Shown one piece after another: positions 13,951 to 32,080 of a stretch of DNA of 64,000 bases. This DNA comes from Candidatus Multivorans sp. (lineage in GTDB: Bacteria; Acidobacteriota; Thermoanaerobaculia; Multivoradales; Multivoraceae). The notes beneath the pieces were generated by a model. That model saw only the letters and a program-made list of their open reading frames with translations. It ran no database searches and was not told where the DNA came from. The position numbers and the translations under genes are program-made. The stretch is taken from contig OZ251997.1 of NCBI GenBank assembly GCA_965247095.1, positions 407,949 through 471,948 on the forward strand, read 5' to 3'. Numbering within the stretch: position 1 is the stretch's first letter; each line of letters begins with the position of its first letter.

Positions 13951-13951
13951 C

Positions 13952-14293
13952 TCAGTCTCGTGCCGCCTCCCGGCGTCGCTCGGCGATGAAGGCGTCGACT
14001 TCGCTCCCCGATGAACTTGTGCCGTGCTTCCGGGCAAGGGCCTGGGCGCGGGCGACTGCCGCGTCCACCGCCGTTTCCACGGTTGTTATCCGGATCGTGT
14101 CGCCTTCGAGATCGAGGATGACCTTCTGTCGAGGCTGAAAACCCAATGCCGCGCGAAAATGGGCTGGTACTACGAGCCGGCCTGCGGAGTCGATGATGGT
14201 GGAAGTCTGTGCGGGAGCGGGTGTGGGATCATCTGCCATAGCGCAGGAGTCTACCATTGTGGCGCAGAATGGGAGGGTGCTCGGCTGTACCAC
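13952..14293 (-). CDS. vapB: Type II antitoxin VapB (AbrB/SpoVT/MazE-like swapped-hairpin domain)
   Basis: IIDSAGRLVVPAHFRAALGFQPRQKVILDLEGDTIRI matches SpoVT/AbrB fold antitoxins; sits immediately upstream of PIN toxin; true start may be internal (MADDPT...). Confidence 0.6.
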   Translation of the reverse strand: MVQPSTLPFCATMVDSCAMADDPTPAPAQTSTIIDSAGRLVVPAHFRAALGFQPRQKVILDLEGDTIRITTVETAVDAAVARAQALARKHGTSSSGSEVDAFIAERRREAARD

Positions 14294-14413: not shown

Positions 14414-14710
14414 CTACACGCAGATCGTCATGCTCCGGAAGGTCAGGTGCATCCCGACGGCGGTCAAGAAGGGGGAGCCAAGAGCCTGGCCGACGGCCGT
14501 AAGGAGCGCTCCGGCGACCGAGTCGGTCCTGCAACTGTGGCTCCGCGCTCCTCCAGCCACTCTCGTCAGGTCGGTGACCGTGAGCTGGTCGAGGCCATCG
14601 TGGCCGATGGTCGAGGTGCCGCCCGCCATCACGGCGTCAGGCGGTGTGGCGAAGGAAGCGCCGACGCTCAATACAAGGGCGATCGATGCAGTGGCTAGGA
14701 ATCTCGTCAT
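14414..14710 (-). CDS. Small secreted protein (98 aa), paralog of 16896-17198; two Cys, C-terminal ...CV
   Basis: ATG at 14710 with conserved GAAAGGA RBS; signal peptide MTRFLATASIALVLSVGASFATPP; aligns with the other small protein (LSVG[GA][AS]FA.PP...G.D.L[DE]QL...PFL.A...CV); embedded in the 441-aa Arg-rich ORF which is rejected. Confidence 0.55.
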   Translation of the reverse strand: MTRFLATASIALVLSVGASFATPPDAVMAGGTSTIGHDGLDQLTVTDLTRVAGGARSHSCRTDSVAGALLTAVGQALGSPFLTAVGMHLTFRSMTICV

Positions 14711-14913: not shown

Positions 14914-15603
14914 TCAGCCGCTGAGCATCTGCTCGCGGCGCTCCGCACGGGCGAAGGTCAGGGCGACGATGGCGGCGATGATGAGGGCAATGCCTATACG
15001 GTTCTGGACGGCCATGGTGAGCAACTGCTCGGCGTCGCCCCCTTTCACGGCGAGCGGGTTCCACAATGGCGAGATGCGCGGCTCGACCGAGAGGTATGCC
15101 ATTCGAAGGTTCGGGGCGAGTAGTGCCATGGTTGCCATTGCGCCGGTGACCTCGCTTCGGAAGAGGGTGGCGAAACCCATCGCTGCTACCAGGTAGAAAG
15201 CGGCTCCCTGCGCCGTGCCGTAGATGGTCTGAACAACTGGAAAGGAAGTGAAGAAAGCAAAGGTAAGCACCGCCGTCGGCGTCAGACTTGCAAACAGGAT
15301 CAGCCCTGCGGCAGCGAGTTTTCCGGTCCATACGCGACGGGTGCCGCCGGGTACGGTGTAGGCGATCTCCAGGGTGCGCTCGTCGAGTTCGCCGGCGATG
15401 ATCCGGCCGCCCAGGAAGACGGCGAGAACCGCGACCGGCGCACCAATCAGGGTGTTCTGTGCGTCGGCGGGCTCGAAGTTGGGCCGAAGCCCGGAGATGA
15501 GCAGTATCGCCTGAATTCCCAACCACGGCAGGGGCAGCAGCGGCAGCAGCCAGTAACGCGGGCCCCCGATCAGCACGGCGGAGAGACGGAGAACGGTGAT
15601 CAT
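14914..15603 (-). CDS. ABC-2 family transporter permease, paralog 3 of 3
   Basis: 229 aa, ~6 TM; ~60-70% identical to 15762-16451 and 17458-18150; ATG overlaps upstream relic stop (ATGA). Confidence 0.7.
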   Translation of the reverse strand: MITVLRLSAVLIGGPRYWLLPLLPLPWLGIQAILLISGLRPNFEPADAQNTLIGAPVAVLAVFLGGRIIAGELDERTLEIAYTVPGGTRRVWTGKLAAAGLILFASLTPTAVLTFAFFTSFPVVQTIYGTAQGAAFYLVAAMGFATLFRSEVTGAMATMALLAPNLRMAYLSVEPRISPLWNPLAVKGGDAEQLLTMAVQNRIGIALIIAAIVALTFARAERREQMLSG

Positions 15604-15761: not shown

Positions 15762-16451
15762 CTAGCGGCTGAGCATCTTCTCGCGACGCTCCGCGCGAGC
15801 GAAGGTCAGGGCGACGATGGCGGCGATGGTGAGCGCGATGCCGATGCGGTTCTGGATGGTCATGGCGAGCAACTGCTCGGCGTCGGCTCCTTTCACGGCG
15901 AGCGGGTTCCAGAACGGCGAGATGCGCAGGTGCCCGCCGAAGCCGGTCACAGAGCCGTTCAAGCCGAATAGCGCAATCGTGACCAAGGCACCGCTCACCT
16001 CGCTGCGGAACAGCGTGGAGAAACCCATCGCCGCGGCTAGGTAGAAGCTGGCTCCTTGGCCAGCACCGTGGAGGGTCTGGACGACCGGAAACGCGGTGAA
16101 GAAGGCGAACGCCAGAACAGTCATCGGGATCAGGCTGCCAAGCAGGATCAGGCCTGCGGCGGTTAGTTTCCCCCACCAGACCCGATGGGCGCCGCCCGGG
16201 ACGGTGTAGGCGACTTCAAGGGTGCGCTCGTCGAGTTCGCCGGTGATGATCCGGCCGCCGAGAAACACAGCGAGGATCGCTACTGGCGCACCGATCAAGG
16301 TGTTCTGTGCAGCGGCGGGTTCGAAGCCGGGACGGCCGGTGAACAGCAACAGCACCGCCTGAAGGCCTAGCCAAGTCAGTGGCAGCAGAGGTAGCAGCCA
16401 GTATCTTGGCCCTCCGATCAGCACGGCGGAAAGACGGACAACGGTTCTCAT
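15762..16451 (-). CDS. ABC-2 family transporter permease, paralog 2 of 3
   Basis: 229 aa multi-TM, paralogous to neighbours; ATG start overlapping relic stop. Confidence 0.7.
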   Translation of the reverse strand: MRTVVRLSAVLIGGPRYWLLPLLPLTWLGLQAVLLLFTGRPGFEPAAAQNTLIGAPVAILAVFLGGRIITGELDERTLEVAYTVPGGAHRVWWGKLTAAGLILLGSLIPMTVLAFAFFTAFPVVQTLHGAGQGASFYLAAAMGFSTLFRSEVSGALVTIALFGLNGSVTGFGGHLRISPFWNPLAVKGADAEQLLAMTIQNRIGIALTIAAIVALTFARAERREKMLSR

Positions 16452-16895: not shown

Positions 16896-17198
16896 CTAGA
16901 CACACACAGCGTCCGCGAGGAACGGACCGGCCAACCCGGCAGCGTGCATGAGCCCCCTGCCCGTGTAGATCCCTACGAAGACAAAGGCCTCGCCCGTCGT
17001 CTCAAAAGCAGCAGTGCAAGCTCCGGACCACCAAGCTGCTCCCATCACGCCGACCATCTCGGCATCCGCGAGTTGTTCGAGCCCGGGATTGTCGACGCCC
17101 GGATAGTCGCCCGCCACGGCCGTGACAGGCGGTTCTGCGAAGGCGCCGCCGACACTCAGTACAAACGCTGCCACTGCGATAGATAGAACTTTCTTCAT
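16896..17198 (-). CDS. Small secreted protein (~100 aa), paralog of 14414-14710; two Cys, C-terminal ...CV
   Basis: ATG 17198 (MKKVLSIAVAAFVLSVGGAFAEPP) with GAAAGGA RBS; upstream in-frame ATG at 17222 also possible; signal peptide; paralogous alignment with the other small protein. Confidence 0.55.
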   Translation of the reverse strand: MKKVLSIAVAAFVLSVGGAFAEPPVTAVAGDYPGVDNPGLEQLADAEMVGVMGAAWWSGACTAAFETTGEAFVFVGIYTGRGLMHAAGLAGPFLADAVCV

Positions 17199-17457: not shown

Positions 17458-18150
17458 TCAGCCGCCGAGCATCTTCTCGCGGCGTTCGGCGCGGGCGAAT
17501 GTCAGGGCGACGATGGCGGCGATCGCGAGGGCGATGCCGATCCGGTTCTGGACGCTCATCGCGAGCATCTGGTCGGCGTCGGCTCGGTCCACCGAGAGGG
17601 GGTTCCAGAACGGCGAGATGCGGAGGGGGTTTTCGCCGAAGCCGGTGATCAGGCCGTTGAGGCCAAGGAGGCCGGTCGTGGTCAGGGCGCCGGCCACCTC
17701 GCTGCGGAACAGGGTGGCGAGCCCCATGGCTGCAACCAGGTAGAAGGTGACGCCCTGGGCCGCGCCGTAGAGACTCTGGAAGACGGGGAAGGAGGTGAAG
17801 AAGGCGAACGTGACGGACGCCATCAAGGCCAGACTGGCGAGTAGCAACAGGCCGGCTGCGGCGAGCTTGCCGAGCCAGACGCGGTGAGCGCCGCCGGGTA
17901 CGGTGTAGGCGATCTCAAGAGAGCGCTGGTCGAGTTCGCCGGTGATGATCCGCCCGCCCAGGAACACGGCGAGAACGGCCACCGGCATTCCGATCAGTGT
18001 GTTCTGGGCGGCGTCACGTTCGAAGCCCGTCGCGGCGCCGGCCAACAGCAGGATCGCCTGCACGGCTAGCCACAGTAGCGGCAGCAGGGGCAGCAACCAG
18101 TAGCGCCGCCCTGCCAGCAGCACCGCGGACAGACGCAGCACGGCGATCAC
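17458..18150 (-). CDS. ABC-2 family transporter permease, paralog 1 of 3 (cognate of the fused ATPase upstream)
   Basis: 230 aa multi-TM; GTG start overlapping the stop of the RND-ABC fusion ORF (GTGA). Confidence 0.7.
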   Translation of the reverse strand: MIAVLRLSAVLLAGRRYWLLPLLPLLWLAVQAILLLAGAATGFERDAAQNTLIGMPVAVLAVFLGGRIITGELDQRSLEIAYTVPGGAHRVWLGKLAAAGLLLLASLALMASVTFAFFTSFPVFQSLYGAAQGVTFYLVAAMGLATLFRSEVAGALTTTGLLGLNGLITGFGENPLRISPFWNPLSVDRADADQMLAMSVQNRIGIALAIAAIVALTFARAERREKMLGG

Positions 18151-21100
18151 GTCGGGGCTCTGCCGCGCGCCGCCTGCGCCAGCCAGAGGTAGCCGTCCTC
18201 GAGCGTGGGTTCGACTGGTTCGGCCCGCCGATCGGGGCGGTCGGCAGCCAGCACGCGCAGGCGGCTGCTGCCGTCGGGTTCCGGTTGGCGATCGGCGAGC
18301 ACGGACGCCTCGGGAAGCTCCGGCTCCTCATCTCCGGGCGCCGTCCATGACCAGACACGGCCTTCGGCCTCTCGGGACAGCGCCGCCGGCTCGCCGTCGA
18401 ACACCATGCGGCCGCCGGTGAGCACCAGTACGCGCTCGCAGGCCACCGCCACGTCCTCGACGACGTGGGTCGAGAAGAGGACGATGCGGTCCTTGGCCAG
18501 GCGCGAGAGCAGGTTGCGGAAGCGGACGCGCTCGCGTGGGTCGAGGCCGACGGTCGGCTCGTCGACGACGATGATCGGCGGCAGGCGCAACAGCGTGCGG
18601 GCCACCGCGACCCGCTGCCGCATGCCGCCGGAGTAGCCGCCGATCGGTTCGTCCGCTCGCTCGTCGAGTCCGACTTCGCGCAGCAGGGAGCCGATGCGCT
18701 CCGCTCGCTCCGACGCCTCGATCTGGTAGAGCGCGGCGTAGTACTCGAGGTACTGCCGGGCCGTCAGGCGCGCCGGCAGGCCGGCGTCCTGCGGCAGGTA
18801 GCCGACGTAGCGGGCCAGCCGTTTCCGTATCCTGAGCAGGGGCACGCCGCCCAGCGTGATCCGGCCGCGGGTCGAATCCAGAATGCCGGTCACCTGGCGG
18901 AGCAGGGTCGTCTTGCCCGCGCCGTTCGGACCCAGCACGCCGACCATGCCCCGCTCGACATCGAAGCTCACCGCGGCCAGCGCCTTCACCGTGTCGATCG
19001 GCAGATCGAGACCGAAGATCCGGGTTGCTGCCGCCCGCCAGAGGCGGATCAACATGCCGCGCCAGCCACGGGTGCGCCGGCGGCGGGTTGACCGCTGCTC
19101 CCGGCGCACCGTCTCGAGACGGGCCGTGCGACGTCCGAGTTGGATCAGAAGGATGATCGTGGAGAGGATGGCCACGACGATGAACCCGCCCACCGCGGGC
19201 TCGGTGGCGAGAGCCGGACCGACCAGGCCCGCGAGAAGCGCCCAGGGCAGCAGGGCGGACAGAACGCCCTCGATGCCGCCCGGCTCGACTCGACCAAGCG
19301 CGTCGGCGCGGCCGCGGGCACGCCGGACCTCGGTCAGCAGCCGGGAAGCGATCAGCAGTGCGGCAATCCAGGCGCCCAGTTGGATCAGGTCGGCACGGAA
19401 CCTCATGGCCAGGGCGACCGCGCCGGCGAGCAACAGGAGCAAGGGCAGGATGCGGTCCCGCGCGTCGGCGGGGTGGAAGGCCTGACCGCCGCGGTCGACG
19501 ACCTGCTTGGCGAAGTCGGTCGATGCCCGCAGCGCCCGGCGCACCGGCCCCGGCCGGCCGTAGGTCTTGCGCAGGTGACGGACCACCAGCCGGGGCGGTC
19601 CGGCGTCGGCCTCCGGTTCCGGTGTCGGCGGTTTTGGCACCAGCCACACGGTGAGCCCGAGCAGGGCGCCGGCGATGAGCACGGTCGTCGTGACCTGCCA
19701 GAACATGGACTCGATCACGCCGAGAACGAACAACGGGGCGGTGGCCGCGATCACCGCGCCGAGCCAGGTCAGAACCACCCAGGGTCCGACGCGGCTGAAG
19801 ACATCGTCCAGGCGCCGCAGAAAGACGTAGCCGACCGGGATGACGAGCAGCGTGAGCACGGTCGAGGTCAGAAGACCGCCGATCACCAGGGTCGCGAAGG
19901 GCGGCCAGAGCTCGTTCTCGCGTCCCGTGGCGATGGCCAGCGGTGCGAGCGCCGCGATCGTCGTCGCGCTGGTCATCAACACCGGACGCGCGCGCTCGCG
20001 AACCGCGGCCAGGGCGGCGGCGCCCGCACTCCAGCCGGCGCCGAGTACCCGTTGCTGCATCCGGTCGACGAGCAGAACCGCCGGGTTCACCGCCAGCCCG
20101 AGGAGGACGAGCGCCCCGAGCAGCGCCATCGGATCGAGCCCGATGCCGGAGAACATCAGCGCCCACAGCGAGCCGAGCAGGGCGAGCGGCAGCGCGAGCA
20201 GAACAAGGATCGGCAGGGTCATCGACTCGAACGCCACCGCCAGAACCAGGAACACGAGCATCACGACCGGCGCCAGGACGCGCCGGAACCAGCTCGTGTT
20301 CTCGTCCGAGCGGTCGAGCTCGATTGTCGTTCCGGGCGGACGGTGGATGCTGGCAAGCGCCTCGTCCAGGTTGCGGTCGAATTCCAGCCGCGCCGGTCCG
20401 CCGCTTGGTACGTCGGACGAGACGCTGTAGATGACCTCCCGCTCGCGGCGGCCGTTGTGGTGTGTGATCACCGGGGAAGCCGGCGCGCGGCGCACCTGCG
20501 CCAAGGCGGCTACTGGCAGGACGCCAGCGCTCGTGGAGACGCGGAGCCGGGACAGGCCGCTCAGCGACGCCTCGCGCTCGAAACTGCTGCCGTCCACGAC
20601 CCGGGCGTCACTGGGTCGGTTCTCCGCGCGCTGGACGACGATCGGAAGCTCACGGCCGTTCGGAAGCGGGAAGCCGCTGTTGATGCTCGTACCCTCACGG
20701 CCGGCGAGACTCAGCATCGGCAGCACATCGTCGAGCAGGACGCCGAAGGTGTCGAAGGCGCGACGGTTCGGGCTGACGTGGATCTCGTCGGGGCCGGGCC
20801 GTGAGGCTAGAAAGGCGCCGCTGATCCCCTCGATCTCCTTGAGCCGCTCGGCGACCTCCGTGGCCAGACCGGTCAACTGGTCGTTGTCGTTTCCGGACAG
20901 GATGACCCGTTTCGGCCCTGCCCCGAGCAACTCCTGGGCGCCGCCGCCACCGCCGGGACCGCCGCCCCGACCGCCCGGGCCTTCGCCTTCGCCGGGTCGC
21001 AGAATCTCGGTACCGGCGCGCCGGTTCGCGGCCCGGCGTACGAGCTGACGGATCCGCGCCGCGGTCAGTTCCTCGGGGCGGTCCTCGAGTGCCTCGAGGT

Positions 21101-22964
21101 GGACCGTCAACGAGCCCCCCTCCTCGCGGATCATGCTTTCGACGCGGTCCACGCCGTCGACTTCATGGACCGCCTCCAGAGGCTGGAAGGCGCGCACCGC
21201 GGAATCGAGCGAACTCCGGCTCTCGTCGAGGCGCACGGAGAACTGGACCTGGTCCGCGATCTCTGCTTCTGGCGACACTGTGTTTCCGAGCACAAAGGGC
21301 AGGGCCACGAGCGCGGTGACGACGACGGCGAGAGCCACCGACGTGATCCAGCTCGCAGGCCGCCTCAGTGCCGAGGCGAGAACTCCTGCAAACAGGATGC
21401 GGATCGGGTCGGGCGGCGCCTGTCCGGCGAAGCGTTCGCGGCGCTGTCGCAATCGGGCCAGCCGGCGGATCGCCGCGGGCGCGGCGAGATGGCGGGCCAG
21501 CAGCGGTACGAGACCGATCGCCACCAACAGGGAACCGAACAGCGGCAGCAGGATCGAGAGGGCGGCGATCGCGATCAGGTTGCGGATCATCGACGATCCC
21601 AGGTCGACGAGCAGCGGCGGCACGAAGACGACCGCGGTGGTCACGGACGCGGCGATGATCGCGCGGGCGGTGCGGCGGATGCCTCCCGCCGCGGCGTCGT
21701 CGGGACTTCGGCCCCGCTCGAGGCGGCGTTGGACGGACTCGAAGACCACGACGCTGTTGTCGACCAGCAGTCCGACGCCGACCGCAAGGCCGAAGAGGCT
21801 GATCAGGTTCAGGGTCTGGCCGGCCAGGTAGAGGAAGGACAGCGCCGCGGCCAGGCTGACCGGCACCGCGATCGCTACCACCGCCACGGCCCGCCATTGG
21901 CGCAGGAAGAGGAACAGGACCGCAAGGGCGATCAGGAAGCCTGAGAGACCGAGGTTTCTCAGACGGCCGATCTGGGTCTCGACGAGTTCCGCGGCGTCGA
22001 GGCTGATGAGCAGATGAATGCCGAGGGGCTCGAGATCTGCGTTGACCTCCTCGATCCGGCGGCGCAGGTCGCGGCCGAGGCGAACCAGGTTCGCGCCCTC
22101 TTCCTGGAAGAGCAAGACCCCAACCGAGGGGTCGCCGTTGACCCGGAACAGCATTTGTCGGCGGCCGGGGCCGACTTCGATCTCGGCGACGTGGCGCACC
22201 AGAGCCGGCCGGTCCGGCACGATCCGAACCTCGCCCATGGACACCGGGCCGACGGGACGGCCGTCCAGCATCACCGCCGTTCGCCCGGCTTCGTCTTCCA
22301 GGCTGCCGAGGTAGCGCAAGCGGCCGGCCGCGGCGCGCACCGCCGCCGTCACCTGCTCCGTGGTGACGCCGAGCGCTGCACAGCGGTTCGGGTCGACCCA
22401 GACGGTCAACTGCCGCGACGCACCGCCGCCGACGATCGCCTGACTGACGCCCGGCACCGCGGCCAGCCGCGGCGTGACGAGTTCCACGACCAGGTCGTGC
22501 AGGGCGTTCTGGTCGGCGGCGCCGGTGACCTGCAGGACCATGGCGAAGCTGGAAATGGCACTGCTGTCCTGGGCCTGGACGTCCAGGAAAGCGTTCCGCG
22601 GCTGGGTGCGGGCGAGGTCCGCGGCGATCCGGCGCACCTCCAGCTCGCGGACCTTCAGGTCGACGCCGCGTTCGAAGAGGATCGTGAAGCTGCCGCCGGC
22701 GCCGCTGACCTCGCCCCAGGTCTCGGCGACCCGCGGCAGGGTCCGTACCCGGGCCTCGAGCGGCATCAGGATCTCCCGCTCGATCGTCTCCGGTTCGCTG
22801 CCCGGGCGGAAGAAGTTGACGTAGAGCTGGTCGCCGGTCAGGGCCGGGAAGAGTTCGACCGGCAGTCGTCGCCAGGCGAACAGCCCCAGGATCACAAACC
22901 CCAGGAAGAACATCGCCACGGCGACGGGGCGGCGAATGGCAAGGGTGTCGAGACCGGCTCTCAC
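18147..22964 (-). CDS. Fusion protein: RND (AcrB/HAE-type) efflux pump, ~4 extra TM helices, C-terminal ABC transporter ATP-binding domain (1605 aa)
   Basis: N-terminus MRAGLDTLAIRRPVAVAMFFLGFVILGLFAWRRLPVELFPAL and internal TM blocks (GLAVGVGLLVDNSVVVFESV, LVFLVLAVAFESMTLPILVLLALPLA) are RND hallmarks; C-terminal ~300 aa has Walker A GPNGAGKTTL, Q-loop, signature LSGGMRQRVAVARTL, Walker B IIVVDEPTVGLD, H-loop STHVVED; single uninterrupted frame; GTG start. Confidence 0.75.
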   Translation of the reverse strand: MRAGLDTLAIRRPVAVAMFFLGFVILGLFAWRRLPVELFPALTGDQLYVNFFRPGSEPETIEREILMPLEARVRTLPRVAETWGEVSGAGGSFTILFERGVDLKVRELEVRRIAADLARTQPRNAFLDVQAQDSSAISSFAMVLQVTGAADQNALHDLVVELVTPRLAAVPGVSQAIVGGGASRQLTVWVDPNRCAALGVTTEQVTAAVRAAAGRLRYLGSLEDEAGRTAVMLDGRPVGPVSMGEVRIVPDRPALVRHVAEIEVGPGRRQMLFRVNGDPSVGVLLFQEEGANLVRLGRDLRRRIEEVNADLEPLGIHLLISLDAAELVETQIGRLRNLGLSGFLIALAVLFLFLRQWRAVAVVAIAVPVSLAAALSFLYLAGQTLNLISLFGLAVGVGLLVDNSVVVFESVQRRLERGRSPDDAAAGGIRRTARAIIAASVTTAVVFVPPLLVDLGSSMIRNLIAIAALSILLPLFGSLLVAIGLVPLLARHLAAPAAIRRLARLRQRRERFAGQAPPDPIRILFAGVLASALRRPASWITSVALAVVVTALVALPFVLGNTVSPEAEIADQVQFSVRLDESRSSLDSAVRAFQPLEAVHEVDGVDRVESMIREEGGSLTVHLEALEDRPEELTAARIRQLVRRAANRRAGTEILRPGEGEGPGGRGGGPGGGGGAQELLGAGPKRVILSGNDNDQLTGLATEVAERLKEIEGISGAFLASRPGPDEIHVSPNRRAFDTFGVLLDDVLPMLSLAGREGTSINSGFPLPNGRELPIVVQRAENRPSDARVVDGSSFEREASLSGLSRLRVSTSAGVLPVAALAQVRRAPASPVITHHNGRREREVIYSVSSDVPSGGPARLEFDRNLDEALASIHRPPGTTIELDRSDENTSWFRRVLAPVVMLVFLVLAVAFESMTLPILVLLALPLALLGSLWALMFSGIGLDPMALLGALVLLGLAVNPAVLLVDRMQQRVLGAGWSAGAAALAAVRERARPVLMTSATTIAALAPLAIATGRENELWPPFATLVIGGLLTSTVLTLLVIPVGYVFLRRLDDVFSRVGPWVVLTWLGAVIAATAPLFVLGVIESMFWQVTTTVLIAGALLGLTVWLVPKPPTPEPEADAGPPRLVVRHLRKTYGRPGPVRRALRASTDFAKQVVDRGGQAFHPADARDRILPLLLLLAGAVALAMRFRADLIQLGAWIAALLIASRLLTEVRRARGRADALGRVEPGGIEGVLSALLPWALLAGLVGPALATEPAVGGFIVVAILSTIILLIQLGRRTARLETVRREQRSTRRRRTRGWRGMLIRLWRAAATRIFGLDLPIDTVKALAAVSFDVERGMVGVLGPNGAGKTTLLRQVTGILDSTRGRITLGGVPLLRIRKRLARYVGYLPQDAGLPARLTARQYLEYYAALYQIEASERAERIGSLLREVGLDERADEPIGGYSGGMRQRVAVARTLLRLPPIIVVDEPTVGLDPRERVRFRNLLSRLAKDRIVLFSTHVVEDVAVACERVLVLTGGRMVFDGEPAALSREAEGRVWSWTAPGDEEPELPEASVLADRQPEPDGSSRLRVLAADRPDRRAEPVEPTLEDGYLWLAQAARGRAPT

Positions 22965-22977: not shown

Positions 22978-25900
22978 TCAGGCGCCGGACGGGTCGCGGC
23001 GGCGCCGGGTCAGTCGCATCGAGTCGAGTATCAGGTAGAGGCAGGGCAGCACGAGGAGCGAGCCGACGGTGGAGGTGAGGATGCCGCCGATGATCGTGTA
23101 CGCCATCGGGCTTCGCAGTTCCGCGGCTTCGCCGGCGCCTATGGCAAGCGGCGCCAGGACCAGGACAGTGGTCAGGGTCGTCATCAGGATCGGCCGCAGG
23201 CGGATCGCGGCGGCCCGGGCCAGTGCGGTGCGCCGCTCCATGCCGGCGGCGAGCAGCCGGCGGGCGGTGGCAATCAGGAGGACCGCGTCGTTCACCGCCA
23301 CGCCCGCGAGCACGATGAGGCCGAGCAGCGCCATGACACCGACCGGCCGTCCGAGGAAGCCGAGGGTGCAGGCGACGCCGACCAGGGCCAGGGGGATCGA
23401 GAACAACACCGTGAGCGGTTGGAGCAGGGACTCGAACGTTCCGGCGAGGACCATCAGCACGAGAACGAGCGCCAGCAGCCCCGCCCAGCGCAGTTCGCCG
23501 ACGGCGCGCTCGCGTTCCTCTTCCTCGCCGGCGAGACGGACGATCAGACCGGAGGGCAGGTCGGTTGCTGCGATCGTCTCGCCGGCTGCCGCGATCGCGC
23601 GCGGGTAGTCGCTGTCGTCGGCGACCCGGGCGGTCACCTGGGCGACGCGGCGCTGGTCGCGGCGGAAGACCTCGCGGGCGCCCTCGGCGGGGACGAAGCG
23701 GGCGACTTGGCCGAGGGCGAGGTCCGCGCCGTCGTTGCTCGTGAAGCGCAGTTTGGCGAGTTCCTCGGGCCGCGGCTGGGGCAGAGAGAGGACGACGTGG
23801 CGCTCCTCGTCTCCAGTCGAGAGCAGGGTGACCCTGCGGCCGTCGAGTGCGGCCTGGAGCACCCGGGCGATCGTTTCCAGGCCGACGCCGAGGCCGTCGG
23901 CCATCGCGCGGTCGAGTTCGATCCGCAGTTCCGGCGGTCCGCCCTCGAACGAGGAGCGGACGTTCCAGAGTTCGGATCGCACAGCCATCGCGTCGCGCAA
24001 CCTGGTGGCCGCCAGGCGCAGGTCGGGCAGCGACTGGCCCGCGATCTCGACCACGATCGGCGGTCCCGCGGAGCCGAGCGCGCGCGATAGCGCCGACGCC
24101 CCGACCTCCCACTCGATCTCGGTATCCGGCAGGTCTTGGAAGTTGGGCTGCAGGGCGGTCACGATCTGGCCGCCGGTCGGCCCTTCGGCGGACAGCCGGA
24201 CGAGCAGGCGGGCCGTGTTCTCCTCAGTCAGCTCCGTGGTCACGAGCCGATCGTCCTCGGGCAGGCGGCCGACCTCGGCCTGGATCGCCTGCAGGTGCTC
24301 GCCGGCAGCCTGCCTGACCGCCTCTTCCAGCGTCGCCACGGCGCCGGCGGTGGCCTCGACGCGCTGGCCGGGCGGGCCGACCATGCGCACCGAGAACTGC
24401 CGCGGGTCGGCAGGCGGCAGCAGTTCGCTGCCCAGTCCGAGCAGAACGTAGACGGCGCCGGCGGCGGCGAGCACCGCCACTCCGACGACCAGCCAGCGAA
24501 GCTGAAGCAGGCCGAGAACCAGGCGCTCGACGGCGCCGAAGGCCCAGCCCAGCGGACGCGCTTCGTCTTCGTCAGCGTCCACCGGCATGCTGATGGATGC
24601 CGCCGCCGATGCGTCGGCCGTGGGCTCGGGCGCGGCGGTTTGCGGTTTGGCGCGCGGCAGGAGCCAGCGCGACAGGGCCGGAATCAGCATGATCGCGACC
24701 GCCAGGGAGGCGCCGAGGGAGGCGGTGACGGTGAAGGCGATGCCTTCGATCAGGCGCGCCGCCAGACCCTGGACGAAGAGGACGGGCAGGAAGACAACGC
24801 ACGTAGTGAGCGTCGAGGCGGCAATCGCGCCCGCGACCTCGCCCGTGCCCCTGGCGGCCGTGTCGGCTGCCGAGGCGCCGGGGCGGTGGCGGCGGTGGAT
24901 GCTCTCCACGACGACGATCGCGTTGTCGACCAGCATGCCGGCGCCGAGCGCCAGCCCGGCCAGGGTGATGATGTTCAGAGAGTGCCCCCACAGCCGCATC
25001 GCGAACAGCGCGACGAACAGGGACACCGGCACCGCTGAAGCGACGACCAAGGTCGGACCGAGGGAGCGCAGGAACAGCGCCAGCACGACGACCGCCAGGG
25101 CGATGCCGATCAGCGCCGCGTTCGTCAGGTCGTCCATCGCGTCCTCGATCAGCGCGGCGTCGTCGTTGACCATCGAGACGAGGACCCGGGGCAGGTCGCG
25201 CTCGAGGTCGTCGAGCGCCGCGCGCACGGTGCGCGAGACCTCCACGGTGTTGGCGCCCGCCTCCTTGAACACCTGCAGGCCGACGCCCTCCTGGCCGTTC
25301 ACCCGCACCAGGTGGTCGATCTCGGCGTGTGCGAGTTCGACCGTGGCGACGTCGGAGACCCGGATCGGCTGACGGACCTGCCGGCCTCCCTCCGCCTGCT
25401 GGGTGCGGTAGCGCACGACGACCCGCTCGACATCGCGGGAGTTCCGGAACCGGGAGATGCCTCGAACGAGATAGACCTGACCGCCGTCCTCCAGGGTGCC
25501 GGCGTCGATGTCGACGTTCTCGGCCACGAGGCGTTGCTCCAGTTGGTCCAAGGTGACGCCGAACGCCTGCAGGCGGTAGCGGTCGACGCGTACGCGGACC
25601 TCCAGTTCCCGCCCTCCGAGGACCCGCACCTCGGCAACGTCGGCGAGCTGCTCCATGGCCGGCGCCACCTGACGGCGCGCCAGGCGGCGGAGCTCGGCGA
25701 GATCAGGTCCTTCCGGCTCGGCGGCCAGCCCAAGGGTGATCACCGGCGACTGCCTCGGATCGAGTTGGCGGACCAGGACCTCGTCGACTTCGGGGTCGGC
25801 CGCGACCGGATTGACCGCCTTCTGCACGTCGATCAGCGCCAGGTCCATGTCGGCGTCCCAGTCGAAGCGGACGGTGGCGATCAGGCGGCCGGTGCGGGCG

Positions 25901-26172
25901 ACCTGGTGCACCTCGCGGAGGCCGCGCACCGTGAACAGGCGCTGCTCGACCTGCTCGCCGTAGAGCCGCTCCATCTCGGTCGGCGGCCGGTCGCCGGAAC
26001 GCACGGCGACGACGATGGTCGGCGAACGCAGGTCGGGCAGGAGGTCGATCGGCAGTTCACGCCACGACATCCAGCCCACCAAGGCGAATGCCAGGGCGGT
26101 GACGGTGACCGCTACGGGCCGGCGCGCAGCCAGGCGGGCGGGGCCGAAGGTCTCACCGGATGTTCGAGTCAT
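22978..26172 (-). CDS. RND efflux transporter permease subunit (AcrB/HAE family), 1064 aa
   Basis: MTRTSGETFGPARLAARRPVAVTVTALAFALVGWMSWRELPIDLLPDL..., 12-TM RND organisation with two large periplasmic loops; 13 bp upstream of the fusion gene. Confidence 0.8.
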   Translation of the reverse strand: MTRTSGETFGPARLAARRPVAVTVTALAFALVGWMSWRELPIDLLPDLRSPTIVVAVRSGDRPPTEMERLYGEQVEQRLFTVRGLREVHQVARTGRLIATVRFDWDADMDLALIDVQKAVNPVAADPEVDEVLVRQLDPRQSPVITLGLAAEPEGPDLAELRRLARRQVAPAMEQLADVAEVRVLGGRELEVRVRVDRYRLQAFGVTLDQLEQRLVAENVDIDAGTLEDGGQVYLVRGISRFRNSRDVERVVVRYRTQQAEGGRQVRQPIRVSDVATVELAHAEIDHLVRVNGQEGVGLQVFKEAGANTVEVSRTVRAALDDLERDLPRVLVSMVNDDAALIEDAMDDLTNAALIGIALAVVVLALFLRSLGPTLVVASAVPVSLFVALFAMRLWGHSLNIITLAGLALGAGMLVDNAIVVVESIHRRHRPGASAADTAARGTGEVAGAIAASTLTTCVVFLPVLFVQGLAARLIEGIAFTVTASLGASLAVAIMLIPALSRWLLPRAKPQTAAPEPTADASAAASISMPVDADEDEARPLGWAFGAVERLVLGLLQLRWLVVGVAVLAAAGAVYVLLGLGSELLPPADPRQFSVRMVGPPGQRVEATAGAVATLEEAVRQAAGEHLQAIQAEVGRLPEDDRLVTTELTEENTARLLVRLSAEGPTGGQIVTALQPNFQDLPDTEIEWEVGASALSRALGSAGPPIVVEIAGQSLPDLRLAATRLRDAMAVRSELWNVRSSFEGGPPELRIELDRAMADGLGVGLETIARVLQAALDGRRVTLLSTGDEERHVVLSLPQPRPEELAKLRFTSNDGADLALGQVARFVPAEGAREVFRRDQRRVAQVTARVADDSDYPRAIAAAGETIAATDLPSGLIVRLAGEEEERERAVGELRWAGLLALVLVLMVLAGTFESLLQPLTVLFSIPLALVGVACTLGFLGRPVGVMALLGLIVLAGVAVNDAVLLIATARRLLAAGMERRTALARAAAIRLRPILMTTLTTVLVLAPLAIGAGEAAELRSPMAYTIIGGILTSTVGSLLVLPCLYLILDSMRLTRRRRDPSGA

Positions 26173-26211: not shown

Positions 26212-27312
26212 TTATTGGGAAACCCGGACGCGGGTGCCGTCGGTCAGGGTTTCGAGGCCGCGAACGACGACCCGCTCGCCGAGCTCCAGCCCCTGGCGAA
26301 TCTCGGTGATCTCGTCGTCGCCGAGACCGAGAACGACTTCGCGCCGCACCGCGCGCTGGCCGTCGAGGACGAAGACGACGCGCCGGCCGCCGCGCTCGGT
26401 AACCGCCTCGCGCGGAATGACGGGGACGTCGTTGCGCTGCTCGACGACCAGGGTCACTTCGACGAACATGCCCGGCCGCAGCAGGCCGCCGGGATTGCGC
26501 ACCGCCACCTCGGCGCGGAAGGTGTGGGTGACCGGGTCGACCTCGGGGGACAGGCGGACGACCCCGCCTTCGAACGTCTGGCCCTCCCAGGCGAAGTGCC
26601 TGAGCCGGCCCCGCTGCCCGGGGTGGACCCGCGCCAGTTCGGGGCCCACGAGGTCGATGTCGGCGATCAGGGAGGCGACCGGAGCGATCCGGGCCACCTG
26701 GAAGCCCCGGGAAACGAGCTGGCCGTCGGCGATCGGCATGCCGTTCGGGTCGCGGGCGAGTTCCATCAGCACGCCGCCGATCGGGGTCAGCATCTTCGCG
26801 CGGTCCTCGGTAAGCAGGCTCTGCTCCCAGGTCGCCTTCGCGTCTTCGAGCGCGATCTCGGCGCGGCGCAGCTCTTCGGCACTGATCAGTTCCTGCTCGA
26901 ACAGCTTGGCGCGGGCGTCGCGTTCGGCCTCGGCGCCCAGGTAGGCTTGGTGGGTCGCCTCGACCCGGGCCGCGAGCCGTGCGTCCTCGCCGGTGACCTC
27001 CGCGATCATCTGCTCGGGGACGACGCGGTCGCCTTCGGCCAGCCGGTCGCCGGAACCGTTGCGGCCGATCAGCAGTCTCCCCGGCGTCTCGACCTGCAGG
27101 ACGATGCTCTCGGCCGCTCGCAGAGTGCCGGTGGCGACGATCAGATCCTCGACGTTGCCGGTTTCGACCTCGGCCGCGGTGACCGGCACCAGGAAGTCGA
27201 CGGGGTCCGTGCTGCCGCCGCCTTCGCAGGCGACGATCACGGCGCAGGCGGCTATCGCGAGGCCCGCATGCCGGAGGCCGGCGATCGGGCGGGAGGGCTG
27301 CCGCGGGCTCAT
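26212..27312 (-). CDS. Efflux RND adaptor subunit (membrane fusion protein, HlyD/AcrA family), probable lipoprotein
   Basis: Start moved to ATG 27312 (MSPRQPSRPIAGLRHAGLAIAACAVIVAC), overlapping upstream stop as ATGA; coiled-coil segment (AEELRRAEIALEDAKATWEQSLL) plus beta-barrel/MP region typical of MFPs; upstream 173 aa of the ORF are Arg-rich junk. Confidence 0.75.
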   Translation of the reverse strand: MSPRQPSRPIAGLRHAGLAIAACAVIVACEGGGSTDPVDFLVPVTAAEVETGNVEDLIVATGTLRAAESIVLQVETPGRLLIGRNGSGDRLAEGDRVVPEQMIAEVTGEDARLAARVEATHQAYLGAEAERDARAKLFEQELISAEELRRAEIALEDAKATWEQSLLTEDRAKMLTPIGGVLMELARDPNGMPIADGQLVSRGFQVARIAPVASLIADIDLVGPELARVHPGQRGRLRHFAWEGQTFEGGVVRLSPEVDPVTHTFRAEVAVRNPGGLLRPGMFVEVTLVVEQRNDVPVIPREAVTERGGRRVVFVLDGQRAVRREVVLGLGDDEITEIRQGLELGERVVVRGLETLTDGTRVRVSQ

Positions 27313-30300
27313 AGCCCCGCGCCCCCGGTCTCGGCGCGGCCGGCGGCGGCGCTGTTGTCGAGCCGCACGAAGCGCACCGCGTCCGCGGCGACCGCTTTGC
27401 CGGAGGTCTCGTCGCTCAGGACCAGTTCGGTCGGGCCGCCGGCCAGATCGAAGTCGCCCAGCACCGCCCATCCCGCGCCCGCGGCCGCGGCGTCGAAGTC
27501 GATCGGCCGGGAGACGCCGCCGTTCTGCAACTCCAGGTCGTAGGTGCCGAGAGCCAGCCCCAGGTTCACCGAGACCCGTACGCCGCCGTCGTCGTCCCCT
27601 CCTCTTCGTGGTGCGTCTCCACCTCCGTCGCCGACCCGCACTTCCCGACGCACGGCCGTGGCGCCGGCTGGCAGGGGCGAGAGCGACGGCACGTGCAGTT
27701 CGACCCGCCAGCGGCCGTCTGCCGGCAACTCCGTCCGGTAGATCGCGCGGCTGTTCCCTTCGCCCGCGGGCGCCAGGGCGGTCGTGCGGCGGTAGCGGCC
27801 CCAACTGGTGGGCTGTGCGTAGCGCGACCATTCGGTCGGCGGTCCGCCGAAGCTCTGGTAGACGAGCAGACCCTGATCCGTCTGGTTCGACGGCGCGAAG
27901 AAGCCAGCGAGACCGCCCTGCAGCCGGAAGCCGCCGGCATCCGCTTCATCCGTCTCGATCGAGAAGCCGGGGTCCAGGTCGTCGACGACGATCATGTCGG
28001 TCGTTGACTCGAGGAAGGCGGGCAGCCAGTCGGCCGGCCGCGTGCCGCGCAGTGGTTCGGCATCGACGATCGTCTCGTTGTTGACGCTCGGCAGATCGAT
28101 CGGGAACTCCCGGCGGTTCAGCGACAGGTAAGGTGAAGCCAGCATCCTGCCCGGCACCCTGGAAGTGACCAGACCGAATTCGACGGAGCTGTTTCCCGGG
28201 ATCAGGGTCGGCTCGCTGGACTCCCAGCGCACGCCGCTCGGTGCGCGGACGGCGTAGCGGAGCCGGAACAGGCCCGGAGCCTCCTCGCCGTTGTGGACGA
28301 AGAGACGGGTCTGGTACTGCGGCAGGCCCTGGTCGTCGTCCGCCAGCCGCACGAGTTCGGCGGGGGATACGACGAAGCCCGGCAGGTCGGTCTGGTGGAG
28401 GAAGTCGCCGACCAGGCCGGCGAGGTCCAGGCCGGCTTCCTGAGCGGCCCGTTCGAGGTCGGCGGCGGTGAAGGTCGATCCCCGGTGGTCGCGCATGAGG
28501 TTCGCGAGCATCGCGGCGGTCCGTTCCCGGCCGGCGCCGTCCAGAATTGCGCCGGCAAGGGCCGAAGTCTTCAGATAGAGCGCGTTCAACGCTTTCTTCG
28601 GCTCCTCTTCGACGTCCATTTCCGTCAGCGAGGCGCCGAGAACGGCGTCCCATACCTCGGGGCGGTCGGTGAGGCTCTGTACGATGGTGCTGGAGACCGA
28701 GGAGGCGCCTCCGCCGAGCTGGCTGAAGATGGCGCCCTGCAACACGCTGGCGATCGTCCAGCCGAACTCGCGGTCGAACAGGTGGGCCGAGAAGTACGAT
28801 TCGCCGCCGTTCACCAGCCGGTTCACCAGGTTGTTGCACAGTTCCTCGAGCGCCAGCGCCTCCGGACCGCGGGCGCCGGTCTGGTACATGAACAGATTGC
28901 GGACACCGCCGACCTCCACGTTGCCGCCCGAGAAGTCGTTGCGGAAGAACTGCTGCAGCCCGGAGGCCTTTGCCCGGGGCAGACCGCCCTCCTGCTCCTC
29001 GAACCGCTCCGGGTTGCGGAACAGGAACTCGAAGCGAGCGGTCGGCAGGCTGCTCTCGCTGAGCAGCAGCATGCCCGGCGGCGCGCGCTCGGTGTCCATC
29101 CGCCAGCCGCCGCCGTAGGAGCGCAGGGTCCAGGGAACTTCAACCAGGGTGAGCTGACGGTAGGGGTAGGGCAGGCCCAGCTCGCGCGCGCTGGTGAAGC
29201 GCTCGGCGGCGACTGCCTCGATCTCTTCCCGGGCGTCGGCGAAGAGCTCCACGTTTCTCAGATGGCGGGGGTGGAGGAGCAGTTCGATCTCGACGCCCTC
29301 GACCTCCGTCGTCCGGCGATCGAACCGACCGGCGACCAGGGCCGCTTCGGGCACGACTGCCACGGGTGCGAACCGTTGCCGTTCGCCGGCCGGCTCGGCT
29401 CTGCCTGGCCCGGCGACCGTCCAGCCCGAGGGGGCGCCGACCTCCAGGTCGAGTTCGAAGAAGTCTCTGGGACGCCTTCGCGGATCGGTGAGGCCGACCG
29501 ACGTGCCGGGGCGCGGCATCCAGGCCAGCGCGGCGGGCAGCGCGACGTAGCGGCGCTCCGCAAAGCCGTTCAGGGCGCCGAGAAGGATGATCTGGGCGTC
29601 CTGGAACTTGATCCGGTTGAAGTCGATCGCGGAATCCAGGTACGCGAAGCGAAGGTCGGGCCGTCCGTGGGCGCGCAGGCGAAGGTCGACGGCCTCGCCC
29701 GCGGCCGGCGAGCGCCCGAGGTCGACCTCGAGCAGGCCGTCGCGGTGGTTGAATCCGAGCGTCGCGCCGGCGGTATCCTCAATGGCGTCGACCTGGAGGC
29801 CGGGGTTCAGGCTGAAGAGAGCCTGCGAACCGCCGGCGGCGAGGAACCGGACGTTGACATCGAGGGTCAGGCGGCCGCGCGGTGCGATGTCGACGGCGCC
29901 GTGGATCTGTTCCAGGTCAAGGACCGGTTCGCTCTGGCGTGCCGTGTGGGCGATGCGCCAGTCGTCGATTTCGTCGACCCGGTTGCCGGCCGTGACCGCG
30001 GCGGCTGCGATCGTTCCGATGGCCGCCGCCAGGAGGCCGGCGCCGGCGGTGGCCCACAGGCGTCGCCGGGTGTCGTCGAGCCGGGGATGGACGGCGACGG
30101 CGACCGCAAGCATCCCAACGGCCAGCGCCGCGACCGTGGCCCGGTTCATCAAGTTGAAGGCGGTCCAGATCTGGGGCGCGACCTCGGAAGGATTGGTGCC
30201 GAAGCCGCCGTTGATCGCCAGCATCGGCAGGACGTAGGTCGGCACGCGGAAGGAGAGAAGCATCGGCCCGATGGCCAGCCCGAGGCCCAGGAGCGCGGCG

Positions 30301-31858: not shown

Positions 31859-31989
31859 TGTCGTAGTCAGAGTGTTTCCTCCCGAAGGTCTATACGGAAG
31901 CGGGCAGCGCTTGGTTTACACCGCGTGTCCCTTCCAGGATCCGGTGACCGTGGGCTGAAACCCCGCGGGGCCGTCCGCGTACTCGTATA

Positions 31990-32005: not shown

Positions 32006-32080
32006 CGGATACCCTTTTTCTGCCAACATCTCTGGACACCCCCGAGTTTCTCGACATTCCAAAAGGGAGGCCTCCACACA

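Follow-up and report, generated by a model that had tools for sequence, protein, structure and literature searches.

RND pumps are textbook proton-driven exporters and ABC exporters are textbook ATP-driven ones, and tripartite systems are sorted by their inner-membrane component, RND or ABC. A gene on the minus strand (18147..22964) of the 64-kb stretch of DNA analysed here, hereafter the window, raises the question of whether a single polypeptide can carry both kinds of component, and what an ATPase domain would do on an RND pump. The encoded protein of 1605 aa (172.6 kDa) comprises an RND module, six further transmembrane (TM) helices and an ABC nucleotide-binding domain (NBD).

A fusion of an RND pump with an ABC ATPase domain

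The reading frame starts with GTG and has no internal stop, in agreement with the first-pass annotation, which had described one uninterrupted 1605-aa ORF. Both halves of the ~173-kDa polypeptide were recognized with high significance by the domain scan that had been proposed as a check, with Pfam ACR_tran at E 5e-139 and ABC_tran at E 9e-27. A homologue search, also proposed as a check, found the same fusion in more than 110 full-length database proteins, each a single ORF with PF00873 and PF00005 and with identities of 53-97%. The fusion is also kept at 163 genomic loci in species-representative genomes of the Acidobacteriota, Desulfobacterota and Gammaproteobacteria. The carriers known to date all belong to uncultured lineages represented by metagenome-assembled genomes, which is why the system has been overlooked experimentally, and no description of an RND-ABC fusion was found in the searchable literature. 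Annotation pipelines put labels on both halves of the protein.

Long spurious ORFs are common at ~70% GC, and the gene could be an assembly or annotation artefact in which two neighbouring genes were merged by a missed stop or frameshift. We consider this extremely improbable. The unbroken ORF recurs across independent assemblies, among them closed long-read chromosomes and low-GC genomes (GC 0.44-0.46). The latter have clean fusion ORFs of 1580-1587 aa with a 4-bp overlap with the preceding RND gene, and at such a base composition a spurious ORF of ~1580 aa is implausible. Values of dN/dS were 0-0.41 in all six segments, in a single frame and across the junction, indicating purifying selection that runs through the linker, and the junction region was modelled confidently by AF2 (pLDDT 84.6). 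The fusion gene is genuine and under selection. The first-pass annotation had named a stop or frameshift between the halves, or failure to detect one of the domains, as grounds for abandoning the fusion; what we found was a conserved single ORF, selection in one frame and both domains.

The RND module (19815..22964, minus strand; aa 1-1050) has 12 TM helices and two large periplasmic loops, at TM1-2 and TM7-8, and hydropathy concurs. Pfam ACR_tran aligns end to end (aa 8-1049 with profile positions 4-1020 of 1021), placing the module in the RND superfamily (AcrB/HAE-1-like) and bearing out the earlier description of a complete AcrB-like pump with this topology. A phmmer comparison with solved RND pumps gave E 1e-68, the solved relatives being 23-31% identical. 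Solved pumps have a DN inter-protomer hairpin, and the sequence aligned with it is kept without deletion, which is weakly suggestive of a trimer.

The NBD core and a C-terminal beta-rich domain (18150..19001, minus strand; aa 1322-1605) form the other end of the protein, with the ABC_tran match at aa 1331-1471. The full set of ABC ATPase motifs, D-loop included, is present. Walker A reads GPNGAGKT (aa 1345-1352) and the signature YSGGMRQR (aa 1444-1451), the Q-loop residue is Q1392, Walker B and its catalytic glutamate are D1468/E1469, and the H-loop has H1500; all of these named residues and motifs are invariant in 86 homologues. The canonical motifs had been noted before, with the signature misread as LSGGMRQR. 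The top NCBIfam matches of the NBD are GldA, DrrA and NodI, the ABC-2 class, and ATPases of this class partner ABC-2 permeases.

Added membrane helices, a split ATPase domain and an altered proton relay

Where the first-pass annotation had about four additional TM helices, AF2 helices and hydropathy give six, in a 2 + 4 layout. A predicted hairpin, TM13-TM14 (19641..19784, minus strand; aa 1061-1108), follows RND TM12. It has conserved GPW and WQ motifs, and AF2 places its helices at residues 22-41 and 48-69 of the model (pLDDT 83-93), in agreement with the hydropathy peaks; it is predicted to bring the chain back to the cytoplasm. There the first beta-strand and A-loop of the NBD are encoded as a detached piece (19548..19595, minus strand; aa 1124-1139, PRLVVRHLRKTYGRPG), with the strand at aa 1126-1135 and an invariant A-loop aromatic, Y1135. 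In the usual ABC ATPase the N-terminal A-loop strand is contiguous with the domain, whereas here it is present ~190 residues upstream of the remaining NBD, with four TM helices between. The model predicts that the detached strand complements the NBD fold.

The intervening sequence is an insertion of ~180 aa in the beta1-beta2 hairpin of the NBD (19014..19547, minus strand; aa 1140-1317). It consists, in order, of an amphipathic helix, TM15-18 and a cytoplasmic helix, for which AF2 gives helices at residues 101-118, 126-149, 153-177, 191-215, 219-250 and 262-278 of the model. None of the solved structures searched had an NBD with a membrane segment inserted in this hairpin, and relative to these the split NBD is a new fold variant. 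The loop between TM16 and TM17 (19266..19331, minus strand; aa 1212-1233, EVRRARGRADALGRVEPGGIEG) has the highly conserved motif RRARGxxDxxGxVxPGGxEG, in which three arginines, four glycines and the glutamate are invariant both in 19 diverse sequences and in 86 sequences. Since the number of helices is even, the loop is predicted to be cytoplasmic, and we infer that it may serve in coupling to the NBD.

A search of 1.84 billion representatives with a profile of the linker returned only 61 clusters. In every full-length match (1528-1601 aa), the linker lies at residues ~1030-1330 behind an RND-length N-terminal region, and no stand-alone 6TM-NBD was found among these representatives. Nor did profile comparison reveal homology between the linker and the ABC-2 permease. 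These results bear on the proposal that the fusion is only a tether or a regulator, with a functionally independent ABC-2 exporter and RND pump that it co-localises or holds at a fixed stoichiometry, or with the NBD as an ATP-sensing switch on the pump and not a transport engine. Fusions between operon neighbours are frequent, each module looks complete by itself, and the same operon has a second complete pair of ABC ATPase and permease. A plain tether, however, needs neither a split NBD nor six conserved TM helices, which are superfluous because the C-terminus of an RND protein is already cytoplasmic. The architecture is moreover maintained across phyla, at 37-45% linker identity, and the unfused form never appeared in the profile search. 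We regard the tether or regulator proposal as quite unlikely.

The proton-relay set of RND proteins consists of one or more acidic residues in TM4, an Arg in TM11 and, in TM10, a charged residue that is Lys in AcrB and Asp or Glu in other members. In alignments of the fused RND to solved pumps, D402-N403 stands opposite the Asp-Asp of TM4 and N960, followed by P961, opposite the Lys of TM10; R993 is in TM11. This combination ("DN/NP/R") is found in all 73 complete fused copies, none of which has a carboxylate or any other charged residue at the TM10 site, and divergent fusions have NP or NN there. The plain RND pump encoded next to the fusion (described below) has "DN" in TM4, "ND" in TM10 and the TM11 Arg at 63 of 63 loci, always keeping an aspartate in TM10, where the fused RND no longer has one. 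D402 and R993 are invariant in the fused RND, so that its relay, as judged from these residues, appears to be retained in part; the invariance of the TM4 Asp argues against simple decay.

Instead of mainly serving the ABC-2 permease, the fused NBD might drive or gate its own RND protomer, whose proton relay would be crippled, acting through the 4-TM insertion and a TM13-14 hairpin packed on the RND membrane domain. The difference between fused and plain RNDs in TM10 would fit, as would the family-specific, strongly conserved linker with its invariant loop and lack of ABC-2 permease homology, and two orphan fusion copies (L029 and L030) that occur without an adjacent permease or any other operon neighbour. 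However, the invariant D402 and R993 imply that proton coupling may persist, and an ABC-2 permease gene follows the NBD at 68 of 72 loci, mostly with stop/start overlap, which is the standard NBD-permease gene pair. We know of no RND that is ATP-driven. NBDs also work as dimers, and a single protomer cannot furnish one. On balance this explanation is unlikely. We are similarly doubtful of its most specific form, in which the membrane-threaded NBD, by binding and hydrolysing ATP, would make up for the lost TM10 carboxylate within a mixed trimer whose other protomers are proton-driven.

The conserved operon and a possible dual-engine exporter

The conserved gene order is free ABC ATPase, giant ABC-2 permease, adaptor, plain RND, fusion and 230-aa ABC-2 permease. 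The complete six-gene set with overlapping stops and starts was found in the window and at L082/L083. The giant permease, adaptor and plain RND genes have the same order and strand upstream of the fusion at 57 of 65 loci, with adaptor and plain RND both upstream at 61 of 65. At L072 the pair of fusion and permease remains, with neither plain RND nor adaptor in the vicinity.

The free ABC ATPase (30857..31858, minus strand; 333 aa; Pfam ABC_tran E 1.5e-29) is of the NCBIfam DrrA/GldA class, with canonical Walker A, Q-loop, LSGGM signature, Walker B DE and H-loop. It is 38% identical to the fused NBD over 279 aa (E 2e-53), including the C-terminal PTLE(D/E)GYL domain, and is by this comparison a paralogue of it. 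Its gene overlaps the next by GTGA and has the same position at L082/L083. The giant ABC-2-like permease (27309..30860, minus strand; 1183 aa) has weak ABC2_membrane_2 (aa 8-197) and GldF matches and a C-terminal Golvesin_C domain (E 3.9e-9). Its TM segments are confined to aa 21-289 and ~900 aa are predicted to be extracytoplasmic; a structure search found no solved relative.

The periplasmic adaptor, or membrane fusion protein (26212..27312, minus strand; 366 aa from the ATG at 27312), matches NCBIfam RND_mfp (E 5e-46) and Pfam HlyD_D23 and HlyD_3, and its start overlaps the permease stop (ATGA, 27312-27309). The plain RND pump (22978..26172, minus strand; 1064 aa; full-length ACR_tran, E 1e-198) has a single aspartate in each of TM4 and TM10, is ~33% identical to the fused RND, and ends 13 nt ahead of the fusion start codon. 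The first-pass annotation was correct in placing an RND pump and an adaptor before the fusion. Downstream, the 230-aa permease (17458..18150, minus strand) matches the fold of NosY, ABCG and Wzm, that of type V (ABC-2) exporters. A ~6-TM permease of this fold adjacent to an NBD of the DrrA/NodI/GldA class is the ABC-2 arrangement at the gene level.

A tripartite system has adaptor and outer-membrane factor genes. The operon provides the adaptor, and an OEP-family outer-membrane factor is encoded directly downstream at nine other, Desulfobacterota-type loci (E 1e-50, 1e-43). No such gene lies within the 64 kb of the window, where it would therefore be encoded elsewhere, like tolC in E. coli.

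The fusion had also been described as coupled through a GTGA overlap to three permease genes. This applies to the first, 230-aa permease (18150-18147); the other two are not overlapped. These, paralogue 2 (15762..16451, minus strand; 229 aa; weak ABC2_membrane_2 match) and paralogue 3 (14914..15603, minus strand; 229 aa; ABC2_membrane_2 E 1.4e-5), are 73% and 71% identical to the first. The three are interleaved with two genes for putative small secreted peptides, peptide 1 (16896..17198, minus strand; 100 aa) and peptide 2 (14414..14710, minus strand; 98 aa), of the same architecture. Peptide 1 has a signal-like N-terminus, a leader-like GL(E/D)QLxDxD(M/L)xxVxG(G/A/E) motif, a variable Gly/Ala-rich core and two Cys; it has no Pfam or NCBIfam match, and its homologues are restricted to the Multivorans/Thermoanaerobaculia clade. 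All four genes are lineage-specific, the extra permease copies being confined to loci L001-L037; of the three permeases, the first alone is conserved beyond the clade.

In the lineage of the window the machine might export, or guard against, small Cys-containing, bacteriocin-like peptides, with each extra permease docking on the fused NBD as a module for specificity or immunity. The leader-like motif and variable hydrophobic core of peptides encoded among permease paralogues would suit such a role, as would copy numbers that differ among close relatives and a match of the NBD to lantibiotic-protection ABC ATPases (TIGR03740, 105 bits). However, the peptides bear an apparently ordinary Sec signal, and the neighbourhood has no peptidase-containing exporter or modification enzyme. 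The operon also occurs without peptides and extra permeases in the Vicinamibacterales, Desulfobacterota and Gammaproteobacteria, so these genes cannot account for the conserved core. We regard a peptide export or immunity locus as very unlikely.

The best explanation as a whole, to which we give an even chance, is that the operon products form one envelope-spanning exporter with ATP and proton-motive engines. The "hybrid export machine" suggested at the outset fits the conserved operon and is supported to this extent. The substrate, amphiphilic or associated with the envelope, would leave the cytoplasm or inner leaflet by way of an ATP-using ABC-2 module made up of the fused NBD and the 230-aa permease and probably also the free ATPase and giant permease. 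It would then be handed on by the RND module through the adaptor and outer-membrane duct, with proton translocation mainly by the plain RND. RND pumps capture, in the periplasm, substrates supplied by inner-membrane pumps, and the ABC-2 exporter YbhGFSR combines an adaptor with two permeases that differ from each other. In the present operon all components apart from the adaptor come in twos: two NBDs, two ABC-2 permeases and two RNDs. By analogy with the MdtB2C heterotrimer, a mixed RND trimer may be the simplest answer to the mismatch between an RND that forms trimers and an NBD that forms dimers. It would hold one or two fused protomers, the NBD pairing with the free ATPase or a second fused NBD, and the covalent link would thereby set the stoichiometry and proximity of both engines.

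The invariant catalytic motifs, the NBD class, the permease fold, the pair retained at L072, the paralogous NBDs with their common C-terminal domain and the asymmetric RND pair all appear to support the dual-engine exporter. Against it, the extra TM helices and invariant loop could have the NBD act on the RND itself, and both NBDs are fully canonical, so the motifs do not require a heterodimer. The orphan fusions, the window without an outer-membrane factor gene and the invariant D402 in TM4 also count against it.

A cross-phylum RND-NBD fusion, within an operon that has each inner-membrane part in duplicate, implies physical integration of primary and secondary active transport. It may provide a natural test case for substrate handover from the cytoplasm or inner leaflet to RND pumps that capture in the periplasm, and for the matching of a trimeric RND with a dimeric ATPase. 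If the NBD did drive its own RND, a single tripartite pump would run on both cellular energy currencies.

Comparison with known exporters

LanFEG-type lantibiotic immunity systems resemble the window's lineage in having an ABC-2 NBD (with the TIGR03740 match) and permeases beside small peptide genes. They differ in that the peptides and extra permeases here are lineage-specific additions to a core operon found elsewhere without peptide genes, and in that the window locus has no lanthipeptide modification genes. MacAB-TolC shares an ATP-hydrolysing inner-membrane part, an adaptor and an outer-membrane duct. MacB, however, is a type VII dimer with an N-terminal NBD, 4 TM helices and one periplasmic domain, whereas the fusion has a complete RND and a C-terminal NBD of the ABC-2 class. 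The MacB periplasmic domain is similar to RND porter subdomains (PMC5595328).

The NBD is of the same DrrA/NodI/GldA/NosF class as those of YbhGFSR and NosDFY, and the YbhGFSR operon likewise encodes two kinds of NBD, a pair of dissimilar permeases and an adaptor. In contrast to both, one NBD here is covalently joined to an RND and has its beta1-beta2 hairpin interrupted by four inserted TM helices, and one permease has an extracytoplasmic region of ~900 aa that includes a Golvesin_C domain. AcrAB-TolC and MexAB-OprM (HAE-1) share the full-length 12-TM RND with two periplasmic loops and an end-to-end ACR_tran match, the TM4 Asp and TM11 Arg, the adaptor gene in the operon and, at some fusion loci, the outer-membrane factor. 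Unlike these, the fusion has ~555 more C-terminal residues (six TM helices and the ABC NBD), D-N instead of D-D in TM4, Asn followed by Pro at the TM10 Lys position, and a second, plain RND partner gene.

In MdtABC and MuxABC, two different RND subunits make up a heterotrimer that works with a single adaptor. Both RNDs of the operon have MdtB and MdtC among their NCBIfam matches; orthology was rejected (219-358 bits against cut-offs of 1584-1774), the layout of two RNDs and one adaptor being what is common. In contrast to MdtABC and MuxABC, one subunit here bears an NBD, and the hetero-oligomer is one that the genes suggest. As in those systems, one adaptor gene is followed by two tandem RND genes, and the RND pair differs in its proton-relay residues, suggesting a division of labour.

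The fusion gene and its distribution

The gene at 18147-22964 (-) has a GTG start and runs stop-free for 1605 codons, for a product of about 173 kDa. With a G+C content of about 70% around it, the length of this open reading frame carries little weight by itself, but its content is nonetheless specific. Pfam ACR_tran covers amino acids 8-1049 of the product (profile positions 4-1020 of 1021, E 5e-139) and ABC_tran covers amino acids 1331-1471 (E 9e-27). The domain scan proposed in the first-pass annotation thus returned both families on one protein, and the single uninterrupted reading frame joining an RND pump to an ABC nucleotide-binding domain (NBD) is borne out. NCBIfam models place the N-terminal part among RND permeases and the C-terminal part among the ABC-2-class ATPases GldA, DrrA, and NodI. 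The NBD has the Walker A motif GPNGAGKT (amino acids 1345-1352), the Q-loop Q1392, the signature YSGGMRQR (1444-1451), the Walker B D1468 with the catalytic E1469, and the H-loop H1500, all invariant in a family alignment of 86 sequences. Every motif named earlier is therefore there, although the signature had been read as LSGGMRQR.

Homologs of the same fusion, which the annotation had suggested seeking, are numerous. A protein search found more than 110 full-length examples (1570-1690 aa, 53-97% identity), all of which have the two Pfam domains; several are encoded on closed chromosomes of 4-7 Mb. More divergent full-length fusions of 1528-1590 aa were also found. With one genome taken for each of 185,579 species, a scan by a pattern drawn solely from the inter-domain linker confirmed 163 loci carrying the fusion. 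The nearest locus (97%) is from Candidatus Multivorans (Acidobacteriota, Thermoanaerobaculia), evidently the window's own genus. Other carriers belong to the Holophagales, the Vicinamibacterales, Polarisedimenticola, and, with linker identities of 37-45%, the Desulfobacterales/Desulfatiglandales and Gammaproteobacteria. Fidelibacterota and "Bacteroides sp. SM23_62" are the labels of further metagenome-assembled genomes (MAGs) with the fusion. The second label is possibly unreliable, because identity between that operon and those of Desulfobacteraceae-labelled MAGs reaches 86% at the outer-membrane factor.

The 80 loci fetched for comparison are all from MAGs. In two of them, with a GC of 0.44-0.46, the fusion is a clean open reading frame of 1580-1587 aa and shares 4 bp with the RND gene before it. 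Compared codon by codon with five close relatives, the window's fusion gene has dN/dS values of 0-0.41 in every one of six segments, linker parts included, all in a single frame. Cross-genome conservation, the low-GC homologs, and dN/dS together rule out an assembly or annotation artefact. By these sequence criteria the RND-NBD joint is covalent and under selection, and the NBD is, judged by its motifs, catalytically complete; that it serves purely as a tether or in regulation is in our view distinctly improbable.

Orphan second copies of the fusion (1613-1635 aa, about 73% linker identity) occur at L029 (OZ242353, in the same genome as L023) and L030, with no adjacent permease, adaptor, or unfused RND gene. 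In a 57%-identical relative, genes for IS110-family or DDE transposases lie directly downstream of the operon (L082, 15665-18249; L083, 15621-16889). These hint that the operon is mobile, which might partly account for its patchy spread across phyla.

A split nucleotide-binding domain and an altered proton relay

The first-pass annotation had counted about four extra transmembrane (TM) helices between the two modules. An AlphaFold2 model of amino acids 1040-1605, built from 86 sequences (mean pLDDT 84.6, pTM 0.74), has six, arranged as two plus four. Beyond RND TM12 comes a pair of TM helices, followed by a beta-strand of 10 residues, an amphipathic helix, the other four TM helices, and a cytoplasmic helix that precedes the rest of the NBD. 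The detached strand (amino acids 1126-1135, RLVVRHLRKTY) appears to be the NBD's own first strand with its A-loop, as three lines of evidence indicate. V1128, R1129, L1131, K1133, Y1135, and G1139 are invariant in the 86-sequence alignment. The free ATPase of the same operon, an unsplit 333-aa paralog, reads RGLRHVYRGG-TVALDGV at this site, where the fusion has RHLRKTYGRPG and, after some 185 further aa, VKALAAV. When the strand was spliced to the NBD core, profile alignments with GldA, LptB, PhnC, ECF, and PQQ-ABC models reached model positions 2-4 and gained about 3 bits, an extension that a shuffled strand did not reproduce. The fused NBD is thus not contiguous, being interrupted in its beta1-beta2 hairpin by the amphipathic helix and four-TM bundle (19014-19595 (-), amino acids 1124-1317). 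Since both helix counts are even, all pieces of the NBD stay on the cytoplasmic side. Few stretches of the fusion are as conserved as the loop joining inserted helices two and three (amino acids 1212-1233, EVRRARGRADALGRVEPGGIEG), a candidate coupling element with a predicted location in the cytoplasm.

A linker profile searched against 1.84 billion representatives matched only 61 clusters. In the full-length matches the linker always lies at about residues 1030-1330 of a protein of about 1550-1600 aa, and the remaining matches are fragments at contig ends. All full-length matches in this set are RND fusions, with no stand-alone 6TM-NBD protein among them, and by these profile searches the linker is specific to the family. 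Derivation of the six helices from a diverged ABC-2 permease is unsupported (profile-profile probability of 0.4% for the linker against the permease family). Fold searches with the C-terminal model matched NBDs alone, the membrane part giving nothing informative, and none of the solved structures searched has an NBD with a membrane insertion at the beta1-beta2 hairpin. No other ABC ATPase interrupted by membrane helices at this site is known to us.

Alignment to solved pumps places D402-N403 of the fused RND opposite the TM4 Asp-Asp and N960-P961 opposite the TM10 Lys-Asn. The TM4/TM10/TM11 residues are DN/NP/R in all 73 complete fused copies, whereas the plain, unfused RND encoded just upstream has DN/ND/R in 63 of 63; the divergent fusions have NP or NN at TM10. 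In the window's plain RND the two relay aspartates are D416 and D962. Compared with this partner, then, the fused RND has lost a carboxylate in TM10, while its TM4 Asp is invariant. The second periplasmic loop of the fusion also contains a glycine-rich, low-complexity stretch, GEGEGPGGRGGGPGGGGG (amino acids 658-675, approximately 20937-20990 (-)), whose poly-Gly character is kept family-wide (consensus GGGGGGGGGGxGG) and which the plain RND lacks. It seems to lie just before the strand that follows the switch/G-loop of AcrB-type pumps and may be an expanded switch loop.

Organization of the operon

Six genes make up the operon, in the order free ABC ATPase (31858-30857 (-)), 1183-aa permease (30860-27309 (-)), periplasmic adaptor (27312-26212 (-)), plain RND (26172-22978 (-)), RND-NBD fusion (22964-18147 (-)), and 230-aa membrane protein (18150-17458 (-)). 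At the first two junctions the genes overlap, as GTGA and ATGA; gaps of 39 nt and 13 nt follow, and the fifth junction is again GTGA, the overlap noted in the first-pass annotation. Promoter and terminator scans found no excess over chance. A tblastn comparison of the window's proteins with the 80 loci found order and strand kept across phyla, with RND and adaptor genes upstream of the fusion in 61 of 65 loci and the large permease as well in 57. Gene calls in a 57%-identical relative gave all six genes with overlapping stops and starts, flanked by a divergent gene and transposases. In 68 of 72 loci the 230-aa permease gene lies no more than 600 nt downstream of the NBD. This near-universal neighbor speaks against a coupling of ATP hydrolysis to the RND itself, in which the NBD would act on its own pump through the conserved linker; the degenerate relay and six helices that would otherwise be needless favor such a coupling, which we consider unlikely.

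The permease next to the fusion is of type V, with RTLEIAY (amino acids 76-82) as its putative coupling helix. The permease profile gave only spurious matches to light-harvesting proteins among PDB sequences, so that a fold comparison was required. The giant permease (27309-30860 (-)) has an N-terminal multi-TM region, which BLAST did not support as a paralog of the 230-aa permease, and an extracytoplasmic part of about 900 aa that is kept along with the operon. The only Pfam match in the latter is a C-terminal Golvesin_C domain, with no solved-structure relative; this part may hold a clue to the substrate. At the low-GC loci L059 (186-2717) and L074 (135-2726) the homologous open reading frame is 843-863 aa long, is predicted to lack TM segments, and starts after a stop close to the locus edge, and the membrane part may there be a separate upstream gene. 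The free ATPase and the fused NBD share 38% identity, C-terminal domain included; both are canonical, and no motif asymmetry of the kind that would favor an obligate heterodimer was found between them.

An OEP-family outer-membrane factor directly follows the operon in nine Desulfobacterota-type loci, and tblastn found none within the 64-kb window. The 547-aa open reading frame upstream of the operon (31916-33559) was rejected for this role: it contains no OEP domain and does not resemble the factor of L059, a low-GC Desulfatiglandales locus.

Of the three downstream permeases described earlier, the first overlaps the fusion as claimed; copies 2 and 3 and the two genes for peptides of about 100 aa that lie between these paralogs (16896-17198 (-) and 14414-14710 (-)) are extra genes present only in the Multivorans/Thermoanaerobaculia clade. 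Homologs of the peptides occur at L001-L007, L017-L019, L028, L031, L034, and L037, and copy number differs among close relatives. The peptides have a signal-like N-terminus (MKKVL..AFA|EPP), a conserved motif resembling a double-glycine leader, GL(E/D)QLxDxD(M/L)xxVxG(G/A/E), and a variable, Gly/Ala-rich hydrophobic core of about 45 aa, with one Cys soon after the motif and another in the penultimate position. They resemble bacteriocin-type precursors whose partners would be cognate permease or immunity modules. A role of the system in peptide export or immunity would apply to the window's lineage only and is compatible with the other readings; we give it a small chance. Right after the last peptide gene are a VapC-like PIN-domain toxin gene (E 3e-15) and an upstream MazE/AbrB-type antitoxin gene (13561-14037 (-) and 13952-14293 (-)).

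A proposed mechanism and known exporters

Besides the fusion and the type V permease, the operon encodes a free ATPase and the large permease that goes with it, a single adaptor, and a second RND with a fuller relay; some lineages add an outer-membrane factor. We infer that these products build one envelope-spanning exporter with an ATP engine and a proton engine. The mechanism we prefer, with about an even chance of being correct, is that substrate would be extracted or flipped in an ATP-driven step and then passed to the proton-driven RND for expulsion. Apart from the adaptor, the parts come in pairs. A mixed RND trimer with one or two fused protomers, as in MdtB2C, would resolve the mismatch between trimer and dimer, the fused NBD finding its dimer partner in either the free ATPase or another fused NBD.

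The literature searched, including a 2021 Chemical Reviews survey of tripartite systems, contained no description of an RND-NBD fusion, a split NBD, or the paired operon, an absence that is no proof, as most subscription journals and TCDB were outside its coverage. Annotation pipelines already name both halves, as in the JGI label "AcrB / ABC-type multidrug transport system ATPase subunit", and the fusion sequences are thus public yet uninterpreted. If ATP coupling to the RND cycle were demonstrated, it would constitute a new category. The modules themselves are all of known families (RND, ABC NBD, ABC-2 permease, adaptor, and outer-membrane factor), and in the features compared they fit those families save for the absent TM10 relay residue and the non-contiguous NBD. 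In having two different ABC-2 permeases plus an adaptor, the fusion operon resembles YbhGFSR.
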